A DNA stretch of 64,000 bases, taken from positions 12,275 through 76,274 of the forward strand of contig JAHIKK010000112.1 in NCBI GenBank assembly GCA_018897555.1, given 5' to 3'. The notes beneath the pieces were generated by a model, which made no database searches, was not told the DNA's origin, and saw only the letters and a program-made list of their open reading frames with translations. This document shows, one piece after another, positions 3,874-63,822 of this stretch. The DNA is from Candidatus Omnitrophota bacterium (lineage in GTDB: Bacteria > Omnitrophota > Gorgyraeia > Gygaellales > Profunditerraquicolaceae). How positions within the stretch are numbered: the stretch's first letter is position 1; each line of letters begins with the position of its first letter. Both the position numbers and the translations under genes were made by a program.

Positions 3874-5082
3874 TTAGAGATCCAGATGATGCCCTAGTTT
3901 CTCTTTTTTTGTTTTAAGGTATTTATAATTCTGAGCGTTAGGCTCAATCTCTAAGGGTACCCGCTGTGAAACTCCTAAGCCATAACCTTCCAGGCCGACA
4001 ATCTTGCGCGGATTATTCGTTAACAGCCTGATCTGCTTAATCCCTAAATCTACAAGAATCTGGGCGCCAATACCGTAATCGCGTAAATCCGCCTTATGCC
4101 CCAATGCTTCATTGGCCTCTACCGTATCCATTCCGTTATCCTGAAGGTTATACGCGCGCAGTTTCTCGACTAATCCGATGCCGCGGCCTTCTTGATGCAT
4201 ATAAAGGATCACGCCTTTTTTCTCCAGAGCAATCATCTGCATCGCCTTTTCTAATTGCCTTCCGCAGTCACAGCGCAATGAGCCAAAGACATCCCCGGTT
4301 AAACACTCTGAATGTACGCGGACCAATATTGATTCATCTAACCAGCTACCCATACACAAAGCAATGTGTGTCTGGCCATTGGTCTGATCGCGATAAACAA
4401 TTAACTTAAACTCACCAAATTTCGTGGGTAATTTGGTCTCTACAATTGCCTCCACCAGTTTCTCGCTCCTGCGGCGATATTCAATCAGGCTGGCAATCGT
4501 ACAAATCTTTAAAGTATGCTTCTTGGCAAACTCCCGAAGCTGCGGCAGGCGAGCCATAGTCCCGTCATCATTCATAATCTCGCAAATTACTCCGGCCGGA
4601 TAAAGCCCGGCCAGCCGCATTAAATCCAAGCTGGCTTCCGTATGCCCTGCCCTGACCAAGACTCCGCCGCGGCGCGAACGCAAAGGAAAAATGTGCCCGG
4701 GACGCACCAGGTCTTCCGGCTTGGTTTGCGCATTAATTAAAACTTCAATGGTTTTAGCCCGGTCGCCAGCAGAAATACCCGTACTCACCCCTAAAGCGGC
4801 ATCCACAGAAATCATCCAAGCGGTCTTAAAAGGATCCTCATTACCGGCTTGCAAAGTATTCTTAAGCATAGGATCAAGCTCCAATAAACGCAGCCGCTCC
4901 TCCTCCATGGGAACACAAATCAGTCCCCGCCCAAATTTAGCCATAAAATTAATGTCTGCGGATTTAACGCTGGAAGCGGCCATCACTAAATCCCCCTCGT
5001 TCTCCCGGTCTTCATCGTCAACGACAATGACCATTAATCCGGCTTTTAAATCTTCTAAAATTTCTGTGATGGAATTAAACAT
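3874..5082 (-). CDS. ribBA: Bifunctional 3,4-dihydroxy-2-butanone-4-phosphate synthase / GTP cyclohydrolase II
   Basis: [20 protein letters not shown] (DHBP synthase) plus C-terminal GTP cyclohydrolase II (HSECLTGD...CDCG). Start set at the MFNSITEIL Met, because the longer track ORF would run into the riboswitch terminator; RBS ggag lies upstream of it. Confidence 0.9.
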
Positions 5083-5089
5083 AAGTCTC

Positions 5090-5123
5090 CATAAAAAAAA
5101 TAAACCCGAAAACAATCTTCGGG
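5090..5123 (-). terminator. Rho-independent terminator/attenuator (FMN riboswitch expression platform)
   Basis: Minus-strand cccgaagattgttttcggg hairpin followed by tttatttttttt, directly upstream of the ribBA RBS. Confidence 0.8.
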
Positions 5124-5138
5124 CGTATTAATGTCAAT

Positions 5139-5272
5139 CTTTTCTCATCTGGACTTTCGCCGTAAAAAAAACGGCACCATCGGCCCTGGAATCTCACCAG
5201 ATCTGTCCGCCACAAAATCCATGGCTGACTCGCGGGCTAAACCGCCGGTAAGGAATTGCACCTTGCCCTAAA
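5139..5272 (-). promoter_or_regulatory. FMN riboswitch (RFN element) controlling the rib operon
   Basis: Minus-strand sequence GGGCAAGGTGCAATTCCTTACCGGCGGTTTAGCCCGCGAG ... GGTGAGATTCCAGGGCCGATGGTGCC ... GAAAGTCCAGATGAGAAAAG matches the conserved FMN aptamer core (GGGCAGGGTGAAATTCCCGACCGGCGGTA..AGCCCGCGAGC ... GGTGGATTCAG..GCCGACAGT.AAAGTCTGGATGGGAGAAG). Confidence 0.9.
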
Positions 5273-5342
5273 GATTAATTGTTATTATCTTAACAGAAAA
5301 ACGGGGCTTGTCAATACAATTAAAAACAACTATAATACATCT

Positions 5343-5813
5343 ATGCCCAATAAAATTCTAAAACAAATCCATAAAAAATTACTCCGCAAAGAAAAAACCG
5401 TTGCGGTTGCCGAATCCTGCAGCGGTGGGGAACTTTCCAGCCTCTTGACCAGTTTACCGGGATCTTCCGGTTATTTTCTTTTAGGCGTAGTTACTTATAG
5501 CAACAAATCTAAGGAAATGATCCTAAATATCCCGGCTAAAATAATTGCCAGATACGGCGCAGTTTCCCGCCAAGTGGCAATATTAATGGCCCGGAACATC
5601 CGTAAAAAAACACTTGCCGACTTTGGCCTGAGTATTACCGGAATTGCCGGCCCCACCGGAGCAACTACAACCAAACCCATCGGCATGGTATTTATAGCTT
5701 TAGCCAAAAAAAATAAAACCCTCTGCCGGTTATTTTTACTATCCGGAAAGAGGGAAGCTGTCCGTAAACAATCTGTTGGCGAAGCCCTGCGCTTATTATA
5801 CGCGCAGATATAA
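5343..5813 (+). CDS. CinA C-terminal domain protein (nicotinamide-nucleotide amidohydrolase PncC family)
   Basis: TVAVAESCSGGELSSLLTSLPGSS...ITGIAGPTG motifs of the CinA/PncC family; start trimmed to MPNKILK so it does not overlap the riboswitch. Confidence 0.7.
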   Translation: MPNKILKQIHKKLLRKEKTVAVAESCSGGELSSLLTSLPGSSGYFLLGVVTYSNKSKEMILNIPAKIIARYGAVSRQVAILMARNIRKKTLADFGLSITGIAGPTGATTTKPIGMVFIALAKKNKTLCRLFLLSGKREAVRKQSVGEALRLLYAQI

Positions 5814-6269
5814 CTTTAAAACCAGCAAAAGCACAATATTAGTATAAATACCGGCGATCAAGTCATCTCCCATTACCCCGATTGCGCCATGCCTATTCTG
5901 CAGCCTGGCTGCCGGATACGGCTTAAGTGTATCCAGAATACGAAAGATGAGAAAGGCCAGACAAATTATCTTAAAATCATTAGGCATAAAACTAAGCGCA
6001 ATGAGCATGCCTGCCACTTCATCAATTACAATACAGCCCGGATCTTTTTTATTTAACAATTTCTCCGTCCGGCCGCTAGTCACCAGGCCCAAGGCGATGA
6101 TACCGGCAATAAATAAAAAATAGGTTGCCCCGGGAGTGCCCTTAAGTAAATAATATACTCCTACTCCGGCGATACTGCCGAAAGTTCCGGGGACAAGGGG
6201 TAAATAACCGATAAAAAAAACAGTGCTAGAAGCTTTAACTAAAAAATCCCCCGCTCTTTCAAATTTCAT
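5796..6269 (-). CDS. pgpA: Phosphatidylglycerophosphatase A
   Basis: PLVPGTFGSIAGVGVYYLL and membrane profile typical of PgpA. Confidence 0.75.
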   Translation of the reverse strand: MKFERAGDFLVKASSTVFFIGYLPLVPGTFGSIAGVGVYYLLKGTPGATYFLFIAGIIALGLVTSGRTEKLLNKKDPGCIVIDEVAGMLIALSFMPNDFKIICLAFLIFRILDTLKPYPAARLQNRHGAIGVMGDDLIAGIYTNIVLLLVLKLYLRV

Positions 6270-6853
6270 AGGCGGGTAATTATTTTACGGTTGCTCCAAA
6301 GATAGGATAACCCGGAATAAAGAGTTAACCCTACGGTCACCAGCATCAGGAAAAATATTCCCTGGCGGAAGACCTTTTCCCAGGCAGGATTCCAATTATA
6401 ATATTTAAGCATAATTTCTTTAAACACAATAGAACATAAAATAACAAGAATAACTAACATCTGTAAAAATGTCTTGTGTTTACCAGCGCGCGCAGCAGAT
6501 AATACTTTACCTTTATTCAAAGCAAATAGGCGTAAAGAAGTAATTAATATTTCTCTAGAGACGATAATTATAAACATCCAAGCATCAATTAACTGCAATT
6601 GCACGAATGCCGTAAAAGCCGCCAGTACCAGAATTTTATCTGCGATAGGATCCATCAATCTACCAAAATCGGTAACCATGTTATCTCTTTTGGCTATAAA
6701 ACCATCAAGAAAATCAGAAACGGCAGCAAAAATAAATATAATAAGCGCTATTAGTTTTATCCACCAAATTTTATCGAGTCCTGGAAGAAAAAGAAAAGCA
6801 AAGACAAAAGCAAGAATGATTCGAAACATGGTTATTTTATTAGCAAGATTCAT
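6266..6853 (-). CDS. pgsA: CDP-diacylglycerol--glycerol-3-phosphate 3-phosphatidyltransferase
   Basis: NKITMFRI N-terminus and the D-G-x2-A-R (DFLDGFIAKR) CDP-alcohol phosphatidyltransferase motif. Confidence 0.8.
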   Translation of the reverse strand: MNLANKITMFRIILAFVFAFLFLPGLDKIWWIKLIALIIFIFAAVSDFLDGFIAKRDNMVTDFGRLMDPIADKILVLAAFTAFVQLQLIDAWMFIIIVSREILITSLRLFALNKGKVLSAARAGKHKTFLQMLVILVILCSIVFKEIMLKYYNWNPAWEKVFRQGIFFLMLVTVGLTLYSGLSYLWSNRKIITRL

Positions 6854-8094
6854 ATTTTTTCCCCCACTAAGTCATATTCTAAAGTATCTGTAATTTTTAC
6901 TTGGATAAATTTACCTATTTCCAGCGGCCCAGTTGTATTTATATACACCACTCCGTCTACCTCCGGGGCATCACCCTGACTGCGCCCGATATATGCACCA
7001 TCCTGCTTTTCCTCAACCAGCACAGTAATATTCTTTCCCAGGAATTTCGCATTTATACCGGCGGCTATCTCCCGCTGCGCGGACATAATTTTATCAAATC
7101 TTTCCTGTTTTAGCTGTAGAGAGATTTGCCCCTTAAAATTATAGGCAGGCGTGCCTTCTTCCCGGGAATAAATAAAAGCTCCCAGCCTGTCGAATTTGGC
7201 CTCTTTAACAAATTCCAGCAACTCACTAAATTCTTTTTCCGTCTCTGAGGGAAAACCTACGATTAAGGAGGTACGTAAATAAACCCCGGGAATAGTTTTC
7301 CTGATTTTTTTGATTAAAGCCATAATCTCTTCCTTAGCCATCGGCCGATGCATAGCTTTTAGAATACGGTTATTAATATGCTGAATCGGCAAGTCAATAT
7401 ATTTACATATCCGCTCTGAAGAAGCAATCAGCTTCAGCAGCTGGCTGGTAATCCGTTCCGGATGCAAATATAAAAGACGGATCCATCCGATATCCGGCGC
7501 ATTACTAATTATTTTCTGTAAAAGCCCGGTTAGCTGGCTTTTACCGGTAGTATCCATACCAAAACCGGTAATATCCTGGCCGATAATATTTAACTCTGAA
7601 ATCTTCTGGCGATTAAAACGCTCTACATTTCGGATTATGGCGGGCTCATCCAGGCTCTCCAGGCTGCCTTTAATCTTAGGGATTACGCAGTAACTACACT
7701 GGTTTACACAGCCTTCGCATATTTTCAGGTAAGCGTAATGTTTAGGGGTTAAAGCAAACCTTTTTGATTCGTGGTTTAATCCCAGTGTCCCCACGAAAGC
7801 ATCTACTTCCGGTAAATCCTTGGCTAAATTTTTATAACGCTGCGCCAGGCAGCCGTAAACAATTATTTTTTTAAGTTTCCCCTGTTTCTTTAGCTGGACT
7901 AAATCCAAAATTACATCGATGGATTCACGCTTTGCCTCTTGGATAAAAGCACAGGTATTCACTAAAACTACTTCTGCCTGAGTAATGTCATCAACAATAG
8001 AATAATCTTTAAACTTAAGCCGCCCGGCAAGAGCTTCGGCATCCACCAGGTTTCGGGGACACCCTAAGGTGATTATCCCTATTTTTTCTTTCAT
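6850..8094 (-). CDS. rimO: Ribosomal protein S12 methylthiotransferase (radical SAM MTTase, RimO-like)
   Basis: KIGIITLGCPRNLVDAE N-terminal MTTase domain, radical-SAM CEGCVNQCSYC motif, C-terminal TRAM domain; ~414 aa like RimO. Confidence 0.7.
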   Translation of the reverse strand: MKEKIGIITLGCPRNLVDAEALAGRLKFKDYSIVDDITQAEVVLVNTCAFIQEAKRESIDVILDLVQLKKQGKLKKIIVYGCLAQRYKNLAKDLPEVDAFVGTLGLNHESKRFALTPKHYAYLKICEGCVNQCSYCVIPKIKGSLESLDEPAIIRNVERFNRQKISELNIIGQDITGFGMDTTGKSQLTGLLQKIISNAPDIGWIRLLYLHPERITSQLLKLIASSERICKYIDLPIQHINNRILKAMHRPMAKEEIMALIKKIRKTIPGVYLRTSLIVGFPSETEKEFSELLEFVKEAKFDRLGAFIYSREEGTPAYNFKGQISLQLKQERFDKIMSAQREIAAGINAKFLGKNITVLVEEKQDGAYIGRSQGDAPEVDGVVYINTTGPLEIGKFIQVKITDTLEYDLVGEKI

Positions 8095-8873
8095 CTGGAG
8101 ATTTTTAAACCTTCTTTATTAATAACGATATTCTTTAAAGACTGTCCGTGCCGTCCAAGATTAGCAAAACGCTGGTCATTAACCTGCAGTTCTACTGCTC
8201 CGGCATCCCCCAGAGACAATTCCACTTTTTCGCGAGCCTTCCAGGTTTCAGACCGGCCGCGGCCAAGCACGCCATGAAAAACAACCTTCCCGTCAACTTT
8301 AACTGAAATCCAAGATTTACCACGCGCAAATATACCCAAAGCAAACTCCGGAGTCAGCTCTTTATTAACTTTAGTTGACGTAACCACAGCTTTAGGCACA
8401 GAAACAGGCATGGAAATTTTAGTCTTTTCTAACCGGCTCTTTGGCCGGGAAAAAACAAACTTAATTAAATTAACCCCTAAAAATATAAAAATTATCGCGA
8501 TAACCGCGAATATAATTATTTTCTTTAAGTTATCCGAGGGCTTGATCGCGCTCAGCTTGGCAGTAGCATCTTTAATAAAAGAAAATTTATTTTCAACCCG
8601 CGTTCCTATGGGCTTACCCACGATGGCATTTAAAGCCGGTTTCTGTGGCTGCGCGCTAGGGCCGATAAAATTTTTAGCATCCAGGCCCAGATAACCGCAA
8701 TAAATCTTAATAAAACCTTTAAGATAAATTGGGCTTAAATTCGAAATACTATCACCTTCAATTGCCCGCAAGACGTTAGGGTGAATTTTGGTCTTTTTAT
8801 GGATATCCTCTAAACTTAACCCCTTCTCCTGGCGAATCTTTTTTAGCCGGGGACCGGCTGTTTCAATATTCAC
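8091..8873 (-). CDS. rodZ: RodZ-like cytoskeleton protein (XRE-type HTH + TM + C-terminal DUF4115-like domain)
   Basis: LKKIRQEKGLSLEDIHKKTKIHPNVLRAIE HTH, central TM segment, C-terminal beta-rich domain. Confidence 0.5.
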   Translation of the reverse strand: MNIETAGPRLKKIRQEKGLSLEDIHKKTKIHPNVLRAIEGDSISNLSPIYLKGFIKIYCGYLGLDAKNFIGPSAQPQKPALNAIVGKPIGTRVENKFSFIKDATAKLSAIKPSDNLKKIIIFAVIAIIFIFLGVNLIKFVFSRPKSRLEKTKISMPVSVPKAVVTSTKVNKELTPEFALGIFARGKSWISVKVDGKVVFHGVLGRGRSETWKAREKVELSLGDAGAVELQVNDQRFANLGRHGQSLKNIVINKEGLKISR

Positions 8874-22570: not shown

Positions 22571-23208
22571 GATAAAAATAGAAACGGTCCCATTATTCCT
22601 TCACGTTTTAACCGTTTTATCTTCATATATTGACTAGGCGTAACTCCAAAGGTAGCTTTGGAGATTTCTGCTGTTAAAATTTCGTAATCCTTTTTCTCTT
22701 GTGCCCCGCGTTTCTGCCATTCATCCGTAAGCTCTTCACGAATAGCAATACCCCGCATTCTTTTCTCAATCCAATCATCAGGATAACCTTTAAGCTTGTA
22801 AAGCATCCTTGTTCTTTTTGTAGCAAGCTCAGGATTTTCAATCTCCTGAATACGTTCATAGCCAACTTTCGCTAACCAACGTTTAAATAGCTCAGCTTTA
22901 GGAGATGGCACTGACTGAACAATACGAAAAATACCTTCTGTATTAGCGCAATCGGTCTCGTATTTTTTGCCGTCAGACGCTTCTAATTTGAGTCCGTGAC
23001 AAAATGTCACGACCTCGCTACCTTCCTCTCTTAATCTTTGTTTTAATTTACGCCAATAAGCGCCCGCATCAATACTGTCCGTTAATACTCCGCACACATC
23101 CGCAACGGAAAACCACCACTCATTCTTATGAATGGTTTTTCGTACCTTCTTACCTTTAAATATCGCTATCTTTGTCTCCATACTCCCCTCCTTTTCCTGC
23201 GTTATCAT
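22567..23208 (-). CDS. Bro-N domain protein (DinD / phage antirepressor-like)
   Basis: KIAIFKGKKVRKTIHKNEWWFSVADVCGVL matches the BRO-N fold; its last 8 codons (MGPFLFLS*) are encoded by the repeat element itself. Confidence 0.6.
   Translation of the reverse strand: MITQEKEGSMETKIAIFKGKKVRKTIHKNEWWFSVADVCGVLTDSIDAGAYWRKLKQRLREEGSEVVTFCHGLKLEASDGKKYETDCANTEGIFRIVQSVPSPKAELFKRWLAKVGYERIQEIENPELATKRTRMLYKLKGYPDDWIEKRMRGIAIREELTDEWQKRGAQEKKDYEILTAEISKATFGVTPSQYMKIKRLKREGIMGPFLFLS
22571..22599 (+). repeat. Repeat family copy R1 (gataaaaatagaaacggtcccattattcc)
   Basis: 24/24 identity with 23483-23506; same family as 55304-55327 and 57065-57090. Confidence 0.7.
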
Positions 23209-23482: not shown

Positions 23483-23519
23483 GATAAAAATAGAAACGGT
23501 CCCATTGTTTCATTATTTC
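23483..23519 (+). repeat. Repeat family copy R2 (gataaaaatagaaacggtcccattgtttcattatttc); direct repeat of R1
   Basis: Direct-orientation copy; R1/R2 bracket the Bro-N gene and the 79-aa membrane protein gene. Confidence 0.7.
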
Positions 23520-23588: not shown

Positions 23589-23655
23589 GCGGGTGACGAT
23601 GGCTGGATTCGAGGACGCTTCAGGCGGCCGAGAAACAGGCATCGGCAGGACCCGC
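23589..23655 (+). other. GC-rich structured element A (gcgggtgac...ggcaggacccgc closing stem), candidate small RNA or structured repeat
   Basis: ~67 nt at >60% GC in an AT-rich intergenic region; 6-bp closing helix gcgggt/acccgc plus internal cgatg/catcg pairing; 23666-23695 then forms atcct-tc-gggcc-tac-ggccc-tc-aggat. Confidence 0.3.
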
Positions 23656-23703
23656 ATAAACCGAGATCCTTCGGGCCTACGGCCCTCAGGATGACAGTAT
23701 ATC

Positions 23704-49361: not shown

Positions 49362-49397
49362 TCTCTCCTCTTAGTTAAGATTTTCGGCTTTTGCTGG

Positions 49398-49527
49398 AGG
49401 CACAGTTAGAAGATTTTCGGCAATAGTGTGCAAGGAATTACGTCGAGCGTAGGCTGTGTCCTTTTAGCGTAAGGAACATAGCCGGAGCGAGACGTAAGCC
49501 GCAGCACACGGCGAAAATCTTCGTGCC
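49398..49527. repeat. ~130-nt GC-rich imperfect palindromic element (MITE-like or structured RNA)
   Basis: Arms ggcac..gaagattttcggcaatagtgtgc and gcagcacacggcgaaaatcttc..gtgcc pair over ~25 bp; plus direct repeat of aagattttcggc at 49375 and 49409. Confidence 0.35.
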
Positions 49528-49557
49528 GGAAGCAAGAGCCGGAAATCGCAAGTACAT

Positions 49558-52249: not shown

Positions 52250-54039
<1,790 letters not shown>

Positions 54040-54075
54040 TTATAATGAACTGTGGTGAAACTCATACGCGTCTGT

Positions 54076-54218
54076 CTTGTCTTGTTCCTCCGCGCACCGC
54101 TTGAGCCGCCCCAGCGTGGCGGCTCTACGCTCGAGCAGAATCTTGCGCTCCCCGCCAAGAATCGTGGCGGGACCGTGCCCGCGCAAGATTCTTAACGTGC
54201 GCTCCGGAACAAGCCAAG
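54076..54218. repeat. ~145-nt GC-rich rod-like palindromic element (MITE-like or 6S-like structured RNA)
   Basis: Closing arms cttgtcttgttcctccgcgcac / gtgcgctccggaacaagccaag (about 19 of 22 positions complementary) enclosing nested hairpins gagccgcc-N7-ggcggctc, agaatcttgcgc...gcgcaagattct, cccgcca-N7-tggcggg; the 60-aa track ORF inside (54040-54222) is probably not coding. Confidence 0.4.
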
Positions 54219-54310
54219 CCATCCGCTAAATCAAGAGTGTCCCCTTTTAAAACGTCCCCCGATTCCATACTGTTCTCCGCCAAAGCAACTATTAATTATT
54301 TTTATCGATC

Positions 54311-55102
54311 TTATTTAATTCTAGAAAAATCAATCGGTATCCGTTTCTCCTCGTTTTCATAAATAACCACAATTTCATACTTTGACGATAAATTAATATC
54401 ACTGTAATTGTATAAATGGCTAGGTTTCTGCACTGATAAACCGACAACGTCACTGCTATCTATCTTCAAATCTTTGCGATATTGTTCAGCGATCTTGTTT
54501 GCCATCTCCATTGTTTGCTTCACGACAGCATTAGCGGTTTCCTGCCAGTTGTTCTGGACACCCAACAGATGAGAGTAAGAATATGGGCTTTTGTCATTGT
54601 ATAATGGGTTCGATTCAGCTTCTTGAACTTTGATGCCATCTTTGAGCAAAACAAAATTTACTTTACTCTGAAATGCATATAATCCAGCGCCAACTGGGTT
54701 AACCTGCTCTACTGTCTCAATGTGAAATGTCGGCAGCGTTGCAAGAAAGTTAACGTAGTCCATATCTATTGCTTCATAATTCTTTGTTTGCTTGGCTGCG
54801 TAATCAGCAATCAAATAATAATTAGAGCAAATCAATATGTAGACTTGACGTATACCACCCAAGAAATTAGTAATGTTTTTTGAGTATATGAAAGCGTAAT
54901 TGATAACATCTGGCTTTAATCTGTTCTTCTTACCAAAGTCAATAGCTTCCTGTATCTGCTCTGGCGATAAACGAGCGATTAAGCCATTCTTATAATTCTT
55001 TAACGTTGCAGGACGCTGGCCTCTAATATATGTTTCCCTCATAGAAAAACCGCAGCCACTTACAAAAATGCTCAAGGTCACAATAAAAATAAGTCTCCTC
55101 AT
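54311..55102 (-). CDS. Hypothetical lipoprotein
   Basis: Signal peptide with lipobox VSGC; 263 aa, no recognised family. Confidence 0.45.
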   Translation of the reverse strand: MRRLIFIVTLSIFVSGCGFSMRETYIRGQRPATLKNYKNGLIARLSPEQIQEAIDFGKKNRLKPDVINYAFIYSKNITNFLGGIRQVYILICSNYYLIADYAAKQTKNYEAIDMDYVNFLATLPTFHIETVEQVNPVGAGLYAFQSKVNFVLLKDGIKVQEAESNPLYNDKSPYSYSHLLGVQNNWQETANAVVKQTMEMANKIAEQYRKDLKIDSSDVVGLSVQKPSHLYNYSDINLSSKYEIVVIYENEEKRIPIDFSRIK

Positions 55103-55260
55103 TTCTCCCTCTCTACAATTTAGTAGACCTCATTTAACACAGAATGAGGTTAGAATACCTTGCTCTACGCAAAAACTATAATAAAAAATTATCATTCTTG
55201 TAAATCTAAGTTCTGAAAACTTTTCTCCAAGTATCATAATTCCCAATTTTCCTCTTCTGA

Positions 55261-55327
55261 AAATAAAGAGACCGTTTCTATTTTTCTTGGGCCCGATTCT
55301 AGTAAAATAGAAACGGTCCCTTTATTC
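55261..55327. repeat. Inverted pair of the 'aaaatagaaacggtccc' repeat family forming a ~17-bp hairpin; probable bidirectional terminator
   Basis: aaataaagagaccgtttctatttt-[19-nt loop]-aaaatagaaacggtccctttattc; on the minus strand followed by a T-rich tract; sits 3' of the PH-domain protein gene. Confidence 0.6.
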
Positions 55328-55334
55328 ATTACTA

Positions 55335-55874
55335 TTATTTGTGCAATATATCAGAAATCTTTAGGTGGACGTCTTTAGGATTCTTTATGTCAATCCAAGT
55401 TAATTCTTTTACTGGTCCTCCAGCAGTATCAAATAGAATATTCCCGATTTTAGTGTTATACCATAAAACATTCACTTCGATATTCTGCACTTTGCTCAAG
55501 GGGCATTCTTTGTATGTCTTACCAATCATACCTCTTTGGGTAATAATTCTTTTATTAGTAATAGCATATATTGTGTTCTTCCATTGAGAGCGATTGATGA
55601 AAAAAGTTATAACCGTAATAACCCAAAACGGGGTCCAGAATAGGGAAATAATAGTAAATAATGATGTTGCGCCAAAAAAAGAACCCATAAATGGCCTTAC
55701 TTCAAAATACAATTTTTCTTCTGGAAGTAATGTGCCAAGGGACAATATTTTTGGAGTTATATAATGAAATTCTTTATGGATTTCCTTGGCTGAACCTTCA
55801 AGAGAACTTCCACAATGTTTACACTTAATGGCCTCATCCTGTATTTCTTCTGCGCAAAAAGGACATTTTTTCAT
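55335..55874 (-). CDS. Zinc-ribbon + membrane-anchored bacterial PH (bPH_2/YdbT-like) domain protein
   Basis: N-terminal CPFC...CKHC zinc ribbon, TM hairpin, C-terminal PH-like domain. Confidence 0.5.
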   Translation of the reverse strand: MKKCPFCAEEIQDEAIKCKHCGSSLEGSAKEIHKEFHYITPKILSLGTLLPEEKLYFEVRPFMGSFFGATSLFTIISLFWTPFWVITVITFFINRSQWKNTIYAITNKRIITQRGMIGKTYKECPLSKVQNIEVNVLWYNTKIGNILFDTAGGPVKELTWIDIKNPKDVHLKISDILHK

Positions 55875-55940
55875 TTCATATTCTCCTTTCTTAAATAATA
55901 TTAGAAAACCTCGCTCTACACCAATTAAATGTACTGCTTA

Positions 55941-56027
55941 GCGGGTGGCTTGGGTGTTTTCGACGCGCGTCAGCGCTAGAAAATACCCAAGACAGCCTGC
56001 CCGCCAATCTTTATGGCGGGGACCCGC
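55941..56027. other. GC-rich structured element B (gcgggtggc...ggcggggacccgc), related to element A; contains a cccgcc-aatctttat-ggcggg hairpin
   Basis: Same gcgggtgRc / gRcRgg(g)acccgc closing motif as 23589-23655; nested 13-bp stem cttgggtgttttc/gaaaatacccaag around palindrome gacgcgcgtc; lies in the queA 3' UTR and upstream of the PH-protein gene. Confidence 0.35.
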
Positions 56028-57019
56028 TAAATGATCAGCATTGCATCACCGTAGCTATAAAATCTATACTTCTTATCCACTGCTTCTTGATATGCCTTGG
56101 TCATTAAATCTTTGCCGCCAAATGCACAAACCAGCATGAACAGAGTAGTCATCGGAAGATGAAAATTGGTCAGCAGGCAATCTACTGATGCGAATTTGTA
56201 ACCCGGATAGATAAATAAATCTGTATTGCCTTCTTTACGGCCAGAGGCATAAGTTTCCAAAGCCCTCAGGCTGGTGGTGCCCACAGCAATAATGCGGCCT
56301 TTATCCGCTTTTACTTTAGCCAGCGCGGCAATAGTTGCATCAGGAACTAAGAAATATTCCGGCTCCATTTTGTGCTCAGTGATATTTTCGCATTTAACCG
56401 GACGGAAAGTGCCTAACCCCACATGTAATGTAACATAACCCAGATTAACGCCAACTGCCTGGATTTGTTTAAGCGATTCTGGCGTAAAATGCAGGCCGGC
56501 AGTAGGCGCAGCAAGCGCCCCTTCATTTTTTGCGTAAACCGTCTGATAATAAACTGTATCTAAATCCTCAGGATCACGTTTAATATAAGGCGGCAGAGGA
56601 ACAATCCCAAAGTTATAAATCATATCCGCATCCGTCTGCTTGAAACTAATCTGCCCCCGGCTGCTTAAAATTCCGGTAACCTTGCCGGAAGCAAAAATAA
56701 TCTTTTCACCGACTTTTGTGCGGCTGGGCTGAACCAGGCAGGAAAAAGTTGTGCCGTTAATCCGGCGGGTGAGTAAAATTTCAACTCTTCCGCCGGTTAT
56801 TTTATTCCCCATTAAACGACAGTGCAAAACCTTAGTATCATTAAGCACCAACAAATCATTTTTTCTAAAAAATCCGGCAATCTCCTTAAATACTTCGTGG
56901 CTGATCGTGCCGGTTTTTCGATTGACGATTAAAAGGCGGGCCTGGCCTCTATCTTCCAAAGGATATTGAGCAATCAGTTCCTTAGGCAGCGGATAATCAA
57001 ATTCAGTAAGTTTTAGCAT
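56027..57019 (-). CDS. queA: S-adenosylmethionine:tRNA ribosyltransferase-isomerase
   Basis: MLKLTEFDYPLPKELIAQYP canonical QueA N-terminus; the track's TTG-extended start lies inside the upstream hairpin repeat and is rejected. Confidence 0.9.
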   Translation of the reverse strand: MLKLTEFDYPLPKELIAQYPLEDRGQARLLIVNRKTGTISHEVFKEIAGFFRKNDLLVLNDTKVLHCRLMGNKITGGRVEILLTRRINGTTFSCLVQPSRTKVGEKIIFASGKVTGILSSRGQISFKQTDADMIYNFGIVPLPPYIKRDPEDLDTVYYQTVYAKNEGALAAPTAGLHFTPESLKQIQAVGVNLGYVTLHVGLGTFRPVKCENITEHKMEPEYFLVPDATIAALAKVKADKGRIIAVGTTSLRALETYASGRKEGNTDLFIYPGYKFASVDCLLTNFHLPMTTLFMLVCAFGGKDLMTKAYQEAVDKKYRFYSYGDAMLII

Positions 57020-63801: not shown

Positions 63802-63822
63802 CCCGCCAATCTTTGTGGCGGG
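63802..63822 (-). other. GC hairpin cccgcc-aatctttgt-ggcggg between nusA stop and infB start
   Basis: Near-identical to the hairpins at 55999-56020 and 54151-54171. Confidence 0.5.

Follow-up and report, generated by a model that had tools for sequence, protein, structure and literature searches.

The GC-rich element B (55941-56027, + strand) of a 64,000-nt stretch of Omnitrophota DNA, hereafter the window, is an internally deleted copy of a large family of structured repeats, here termed family 1, and is best interpreted as the degenerate, queA-side terminus of a site that holds variable gene cassettes. We assign this combined reading a probability of roughly 0.5. B is a core-less "mini" copy, read on the structured strand of the family (the R strand), and a full-length copy, element C, lies 1.7 kb away in an orientation inverted relative to B, the two structured strands having their 5' ends turned inward.

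The 87-nt sequence is as the initial annotation had described it, and the three helices named there are all present in the computed fold. On the + strand, B folds at -50.4 kcal/mol (z = -6.7), a value equalled by 0 of 200 shuffles, and on the - strand at -45.1 kcal/mol (z = -5.1), where no shuffle folds as well. The closing stem pairs 55941-55946 with 56022-56027, a 13-bp helix pairs 55949-55961 with 55979-55991 and is capped by the palindrome GACGCGCGTC at 55962-55971, and a hairpin is formed by CCCGCC (56000-56005), then AATCTTTAT, and then GGCGGG (56015-56020). This hairpin belongs to a 25-nt module, CCUG-CCCGCC-AAUCUUUAU-GGCGGG (55996-56020, + strand), that is nested within the 3' closing strand of B. 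The small hairpin recurs inside C at 54151-54171 and stands free as CCCGCC-AATCTTTGT-GGCGGG at 63802-63822, between nusA and infB; being nested in two elements and alone in a third place, it looks like a mobile mini-hairpin. With a GC content of ~0.54 compared with 0.32-0.36 in its flanks, B is indeed a GC-rich island in AT-rich DNA, and it is not a tRNA, as ARAGORN gave neither a tRNA nor a tmRNA.

B is located, as first proposed, between queA (56027-57019, - strand), whose TAG stop codon (56029-56027, minus strand) has a single base in common with B, the final one of the element, and a gene for a Zn-ribbon/PH-domain protein (bPH_2, PF03703, E = 9e-12), with B 66 nt upstream of the start codon of the latter. 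Nearly all genes of the window are on the - strand, and the strand that bears the wobble and G.A pairs of family 1 is, at B, the + strand, antisense to both flanking genes. The original label of a queA 3' UTR element needs correcting in that it presumes the gene strand. No intrinsic terminator (a GC-rich stem with a U-tract) was found at B or C, and no sigma-70-like promoter near either. Directly upstream of B on the structured strand lies a conserved 5' extension, ext-1 (ACCTCGCTCTACACCAATTAAATGTACTGCTTA, 55908-55940, + strand), which also precedes the family-1 copies of L025 and L022 (related loci and contigs carry L numbers) and an L091 copy beside a different gene. Ext-1 resembles the reverse complement of the family-1 core motif GGCAGAGCGAGG, as would fit a remnant of a second, inverted element and equally a sequence that pairs with the core. 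Three candidate motifs were judged by sequence only and dropped: a promoter of the sigma-54 or ECF type within the AAAGGGGAC block, a K-turn, because the register misfits the canonical bulge plus tandem G.A, and a mimic of the Tgt substrate, for want of a UGU heptaloop.

The proposed kinship of B with element A (23589-23655, + strand) is borne out, as both carry the closing module exactly and on the + strand. The pattern GCGGGTGRC-N40-70-GGACCCGC has two matches in the window, namely A and B, both on the + strand, and a mean of 0.00 matches in 100 shuffles, so the ends common to the two are not due to chance. The family-1 form of this module, 5' GCGGGUGR ... RCAGGACCCGC 3', was found in over 30 elements, minis of several further kinds among them, and at least nine further minis in other contigs have the same closing module and different interiors. 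A is a mini with the closing module GCGGGUGAC ... GGCAGGACCCGC, which is all that it has in common with family 1. To its left is a species-specific segment, encoding Bro-N (PF02498) and a 79-aa protein, whose right edge it occupies, its 3' end pointing outward to the promoter of rpmB (L28). The homologous loci of the sister species (L199, L202, L205, and L207) do not contain A, which is missing there together with the whole adjacent segment, and the neighbouring rpmB promoter is conserved; A and the Bro-N segment are present or absent together. Three smaller features were noted around this segment. A 24-nt direct repeat, GATAAAAATAGAAACGGTCCCATT (22571-22594 and ~23483-23506), brackets the Bro-N and 79-aa genes. 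An imperfect GC-rich hairpin without a U-tract (GATCCTTCGGGCC-TAC-GGCCCTCAGGATG, 23661-23695) directly follows A and falls inside the segment missing from the sister species. The L28 leader of the four sister loci contains, at a distance of ~40-80 nt from rpmB on its upstream side, an additional GC-rich insert (GGAACCCGGCGCTAATCGGTATTGCTCCGGTGTTGTGTCC) that is absent in the window.

Element C (54068-54226, - strand) was found by a fuzzy search for the 3' end common to A and B. It is a full-length family member of 159 nt, with P1, P2, P3, and P4 round a three-way junction, and occupies the gap between a 263-aa gene and tgt (52921-54033, - strand), the conserved gene on its outer side, 34 nt upstream of the tgt start codon. 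The covariance model R1 matches C at 154.8 bits (E = 2.7e-30), and the fold energy is -86.6 on the R strand compared with -78.9 on the other. A 5' extension of C, ext-2 (AAAAGGGGACACTCTTGATTTA on the minus strand, 54227-54248), is common to the copies L005b, L007b, L008a, and L008b and in part to two L091 copies. As the intact counterpart of B, C offers the best way into family 1.

The structure of the family, derived from an alignment of twelve full-length copies, is that of a GC-rich element of ~160 nt, closed by the long stem P1, in which stem P2 and the arms P3 and P4 meet at the three-way junction. RNAalifold found compensatory changes in 23 of the 40 pairs of this alignment. In a fuller structure of 53 pairs, 87% of the cells are paired, compared with ~44% when the partners are slid, double changes occur in 20 pairs compared with 6-11 in the slid controls, and the covariation lies above that of all 500 shuffles. 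The R strand, with the consensus 5'-GCGG(A/G)UGG...CAG(G)AC(CC)GC-3', corresponds to the window + strand for B and A and to the - strand for C; it gives the better fold in 18 of 19 copies, and across 85 aligned copies it has 173 GU compared with 90 AC and 244 G.A compared with 53 C.U. Both strands of the copies fold strongly. The conserved core comprises GAGCGGGCA..., GAGCG, and GAGCG-N-AG-(hairpin CCWCGNNGGGG)-CRAGCG. Distant members have a P1 of wholly different sequence in which complementarity is kept, and the bases outside GCGG...CCGC are complementary as well (TTTT/AAAA, TTA/TAA, TGCCA/TGGCA), so that they look like an extension of P1. The elements are 87-190 nt long and start with GCGG; the GC content of the copies is 0.46-0.77, and chimeric copies occur in L019 and L010. 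No direct-repeat target duplication was found round the copies, TA/TA being present in a subset only. No open frame is conserved either: none is open in more than 40 of 68 copies, and the frame from AUG/GUG at position 5 is open in just 10 of 27, for which reason a type I toxin-antitoxin or small-peptide gene was rejected. The P3 apex (alignment columns ~75-125) contains an AT-rich, highly variable stretch of ~15 nt between the conserved GGGCANGGUUGCCC and GGCAGAGCG, in which AUAUAUG or AUAAAUG is often present; this stretch could be an exposed specificity or pairing region.

The suggestion that B might be a member of a repeat family is supported by its closing module, which is that of a large family, and by the full-length member nearby. 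When the window was scanned with R1 at E <= 1, C was matched and neither B nor A was. Against the full-length copy of L153, B aligns over its 5'-terminal 21 nt, of which 18 are identical, and over its 3'-terminal ~30 nt, and ~100 nt of the family-1 core (P2-P4) are missing from it; the long closing helix P1 and the lineage-specific module 5' GCGGGUGG ... ACAG-GACCCGC 3' are retained. The CCCGCC hairpin is absent from the B-type elements of L006 and L007, which makes it a clean 25-nt indel inside the 3' closing strand. Since B aligns with both ends of L153 and its hairpin is an indel, B is the P1 of family 1 with the core deleted and the small hairpin nested in it, a derivative without the conserved three-way-junction core and no intact member. 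Full-length copies abut the queA stop codon in the orientation of B in L010, L022, L023, L025, and L027, and B, an internally deleted, core-less family-1 copy, sits at the site that intact copies occupy in relatives.

The 58-nt hairpin of B is 100% identical to that of L006 and ~95% identical to that of L007, and the identity of queA third-codon positions to the same genomes is 66% and 60%, respectively. In contrast, C is 89% identical to its L005 counterpart, and tgt third-codon positions are 91% identical. B is not simply decaying, and the conservation of its hairpin is unexpected. Of compensatory changes B has none of its own, being almost without variation, whereas its parent family shows many.

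A genome scan yielded 27 related Omnitrophota loci with the gene order queH-GHL10-queA-[variable]-tgt-trmD, and identical QueA proteins are present in GCA_018897095.1 and other assemblies. B-type elements are present at the same site in four of the relatives (L005, L006, L007, and L078), the five relatives with full-length copies at queA have a longer element with the ends of B, and other loci have other GC-rich elements. L011, L012, and L014 have no such element and a queA-tgt gap of 15-119 nt; across relatives, its length varies between 15 nt and over 3 kb. In the window, C and B bracket a low-GC (0.35) cargo (54311-55874, - strand) of two genes found only in the source species, encoding a 263-aa ORFan (54311-55102, - strand) and the 179-aa Zn-ribbon/bPH_2 protein (55335-55874, - strand). 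By tblastn against the 27 loci, both proteins occur in the window alone, and B and C thus bracket the sole two genes of the queA-tgt locus that are absent from every relative. The 3' ends of the structured strands of B and C abut queA and tgt, and their 5' ends face the 1.7-kb low-GC insert. The interior of the locus differs in every species: bPH_2 plus an ORFan in the window, and DUF6515, DUF5677 plus ORF6N/Rha, a trypsin-like peptidase, or ORFans elsewhere.

The queA-tgt spacer is a mosaic of several repeat families. In L008, two 99%-identical direct family-1 copies (5303-5463 and 6075-6235) flank a small flavodoxin-like gene (MKTLITYYSY...), which looks like a cassette, since it is found in some relatives only and its position relative to the elements shifts. 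A structured "family 2" of ~230 nt, closed by TGGCAAGTTT...AAACTTGCCA, is queA-proximal in L008 (5020-5270), L013, L015, L021, L029, and L077, and a short repeat, GCAGTCATTGCGAG...CGAAGCAATCTCT, lies between the queA stop and other elements in L006 (4995-5045), L019 (~2880-2930), and L020 (~5000-5050). A "family 3" is represented in the window by a rod-like GC-rich element (49362-49557, + strand) that folds at -95.9 kcal/mol (z = -9.7) compared with -72.1 on the - strand; it has multiple copies among the related loci, often adjoins family-1 copies (L137, L125), and carries a GAGCG-hairpin-GAGCG module like that of family-1 P4. The window also contains a canonical FMN riboswitch (5133-5279, - strand; 98.1 bits, E = 1.7e-21).

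Beyond this locus, metagenome contigs were scanned with a pattern for the P4 hairpin, which gave at least 120 stretches, and R1 confirmed at least 85 and at least 44 matches in them, at up to 152 bits. Family-1 copies in public contigs number more than 130, several contigs holding two or three, and a rough estimate of density is one extra copy per ~35 kb, although the sample, collected by means of a single hairpin pattern, falls short of an unbiased census. A pattern scan of viral contigs gave 0 matches, and there were none either when plasmids were searched with C, or phages with B, by blastn. Copies between genes mostly have co-directional neighbours (37, compared with 6 convergent and 2 divergent), and with respect to two co-directional neighbours the orientation of the copy is the same in 19 cases and opposite in 18. 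The 82 proteins that flank the copies fall into 142 Pfam families, none present more than three times, and represent unrelated housekeeping genes; no transposase, recombinase, or recurrent partner was found among the matches listed for them. In the Omnitrophota literature on RNA motifs, palindromic elements, and riboswitches, we found no relevant report.

These data bear directly on the initial proposal that B could be a 5' leader riboregulator of the PH-domain gene, and on a broader version in which the elements would be cis-regulatory RNAs, either as this leader or as a queuosine-related riboswitch for queA and tgt. Such a role would suit the position of B 66 nt upstream of the PH-domain start codon and the orthologous family-1 copies that stand upstream of tgt, in sense orientation, in at least eight genomes. 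However, all four relatives with B-type elements keep B without the PH-domain gene, the structured strand of B is antisense, and copies elsewhere flank unrelated housekeeping genes in either orientation, with no associated gene family. In addition, there are no Rfam riboswitch matches, and B is without the conserved core. A riboswitch or leader class was rejected for family 1 on the same grounds, as neither a constant orientation (19 vs 18) nor a coherent gene set (142 Pfam families) was found. In our judgement these comparative data already refute the cis-regulatory reading, and a role of either kind is very improbable; for B alone, the riboregulator idea can go.

The distribution of the copies also has a polarity, although relatedness of strains in the contig sample, and pairs with a common interior, may have inflated its statistics. 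The median non-coding gap is 222 nt on the R-5' side compared with 56 nt on the R-3' side (30 of 39 cases; p = 0.001), and the GC content 300-1300 nt out is 0.440 on the 5' side compared with 0.472 on the 3' side (p = 0.003), the 5' side being AT-richer near the copies too. Inverted pairs face each other 5'-to-5' in 9 cases compared with 2 (hand count), and the DNA between inverted pairs has a GC content of 0.27-0.41. Copies lie within 50 nt of a contig end in 12 of 54 cases, compared with 2.1 expected (p = 1e-6). The cargo between pairs consists of ORFans, a UG19 defence reverse transcriptase (2e-146), a PDC-S31 candidate defence protein, and a DUF5677 protein. Cargo between or beside copies is located in L134 at 4499-8188, in L091 at 847-2742, and in L010 at 5213-8071; the UG19-class enzyme, between two copies in L134, has a 437-aa partner, and DUF5677 proteins occur in two unrelated contigs. 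Same-contig paralogues are 59-83% identical and mostly old, with 3-17 double compensatory pairs per paralogue pair, and they cease to resemble each other within 0-12 nt of the 3' end and within 2-38 nt of the 5' end.

Several of these properties could also be accommodated if family 1 consisted of multi-copy small non-coding RNAs, expressed or processed independently, from the R strand, in which case B would be a specialised, conserved short paralogue on the + strand, antisense to the queA/PH-gene transcript, with a promoter in 55908-55940. The strand-specific wobble and G.A pairs favour an RNA, as do the conserved junction nucleotides and the covarying P2-P4, which terminal inverted repeats cannot explain, and diverged paralogues in one genome all keep the fold. 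Orientation is independent of the neighbours, as expected for free-standing genes, the more AT-rich space is on the 5' side, where a promoter would sit, the hairpin of B is far more conserved than synonymous sites, and the upstream block is conserved at B, L025, L022, and the L091 copy in its other gene context. Against this, no positioned -10 or sigma-70-like signal was found upstream of the copies, promoter scores being no better than on the control strand, and none was found near B or C. The 3' flanks are A-rich on both strands, with no U-tract to serve as a terminator, and the conserved core, indispensable to an RNA of this kind, is missing entirely from B and A. Moreover, one extra copy per ~35 kb is more repeat-like than expected of a small-RNA gene family, and the AT-rich asymmetry extends beyond 1 kb, more than a promoter needs. 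We therefore regard a family of small RNAs as possible but rather unlikely.

It may instead be that family 1 is a REP-like host element only, a set of passive, stable stem-loops in transcribed spacers that shield upstream mRNA from 3' exonucleases or modulate translation termination, with the link to variable DNA a by-product of permissive spacers. In Escherichia coli, REP elements stabilise upstream mRNA and, near a stop codon, lower translation. B begins right at the stop codon of queA, has a gene-strand fold of -45 kcal/mol, and is conserved at the queA site. The strong folding of both strands and the preference for co-directional (37) or convergent (6) over divergent (2) genes point in the same direction. 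Left unexplained by passive stem-loops are the strand-specific G.U/G.A pattern together with the random orientation to transcription, the conserved three-way-junction core, and the 5'-side polarity in GC and spacing, and we consider this account improbable as a full explanation.

The data show what B is, and they show the family with its structure, structured strand, distribution, and polarity; the likeliest reading of family-1 function, we infer, is that of a boundary or terminal module of variable cassettes. Under the mechanism that we propose, family-1 members would act as folded single-strand modules, either RNA or single-stranded DNA of one defined strand, that mark variable accessory-gene cassettes and probably supply their termini or points of recombination, their recognition or mobilisation being supplied in trans by a postulated factor. 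At the queA side of the locus, B has lost the P2-P4 core of the ~160-nt element and gained the 25-nt nested hairpin, and with the full-length C it makes up an inverted pair round a low-GC insert with two species-specific genes. In the queA transcript, B would form a -45 kcal/mol stem-loop starting at the stop codon, and, by analogy with REP elements, this stem-loop may have been co-opted for queA 3'-end protection or insulation. The lack of a target duplication, of a partner enzyme among the flanks, and of any match in the viral contigs, plasmids, and phages searched counts against a cassette-boundary role. The retention of structure by old paralogues suggests selection on every copy, so that a host function fits better than a purely selfish element, and the hairpin of B, conserved beyond the third-codon positions of queA, is unlike a decaying relic.

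A wider hypothesis, which we offer tentatively and hold to be doubtful, is that family 1 and its minis, perhaps with the GAGCG-module family 3, are undescribed folded single-strand modules that define or mobilise accessory and defence cassettes in Omnitrophota and related uncultured bacteria. Such modules would follow an attC-like logic with unrelated sequence, an RNA-like three-way-junction core, and a recombinase or nuclease partner, and B would be a conserved functional half-site at a queA-tgt hotspot.

If the cassette reading is correct, a widespread structured nucleic-acid family with more than 130 copies in public contigs, from a phylum without cultured members, is missing from Rfam. This family would be tied to the borders of hypervariable low-GC cassettes, including those with the UG19 reverse transcriptase and the candidate defence protein, and would make it possible to test by what route streamlined genomes accommodate accessory and defence genes amid their housekeeping genes. 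It would also carry a warning for annotation, in that the GC-rich islands of the window (B, A, C, 49362-49557, and the hairpin at 63802) would be members of repeat families and no gene-specific riboregulators. The idea of a repeat family was right, but the repeat is an unusual one: its three-way-junction core is conserved and covaries, one particular strand is the structured one, and there is a polarity to variable low-GC DNA.

The Infernal search of Rfam suggested at the outset assigned no family to B, A, or C (cmscan at gathering score and at E <= 10), and in Rfam 15 none of 16 related loci matched at gathering score and none of 20 diverse member loci at E <= 1. Like REP/BIME, ERIC, BOX, and the Rickettsia palindromic elements, family-1 copies are GC-rich, extragenic, multi-copy stable hairpins in either orientation, and like REP/BIME-type repeats they lie mostly between co-directional or convergent genes and form mosaic clusters, here with family 3 and minis. 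Unlike REP, a palindrome of 20-40 nt, full copies are ~160 nt long with a three-way-junction core and covarying internal helices, have no GTAG head, and are polarised with respect to low-GC cargo; the 82 proteins in the flanks gave no HUH or RAYT family. With MITEs, including the Correia elements, family 1 has in common that it is non-coding and multi-copy, with complementary termini that internally deleted minis keep, and, as with MITE pairs that move intervening genes, inverted pairs bracket accessory genes, their presence varies between species, and contigs break at the copies. Unlike MITEs, however, it is not framed by direct repeats of a target site, and its internal helices covary and old paralogues stay folded, neither of which MITE biology requires. 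The matches listed for the 82 flanking proteins include neither a transposase nor a parent insertion sequence.

In size range, long closing stem, and covariation, family 1 resembles the structured RNAs of Rfam (riboswitches, 6S, Y RNA, retron ncRNA, and omega/bridge RNAs). No reverse transcriptase, TnpB/IscB, or IS110 recombinase recurs among the most frequent flanking families. A retron ncRNA was rejected, since there is no recurrent adjacent reverse transcriptase and the L134 enzyme is cargo of the UG19 defence type, and a 6S or Y RNA was dropped for lack of a model match and because the copy number is too high. Membership of the integron attC sites (RYYYAAC ... GTTRRRY) was likewise rejected, as the core sites, the one-way array, and the integrase are missing: the ends of family 1 read TTAGCGGGTG ... 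GGACCCGCTAA with no GTTRRRY, its copies are scattered among housekeeping genes in both orientations, unlike the one-way arrays next to intI, and no integrase is among the most frequent flanking families. The resemblance to attC is thus one of working principle only. In both, one defined strand folds, a conserved closing part with an asymmetric internal loop encloses a variable and sometimes branched interior of very different lengths, and the folded element lies at the borders of small, promoter-poor accessory cassettes.
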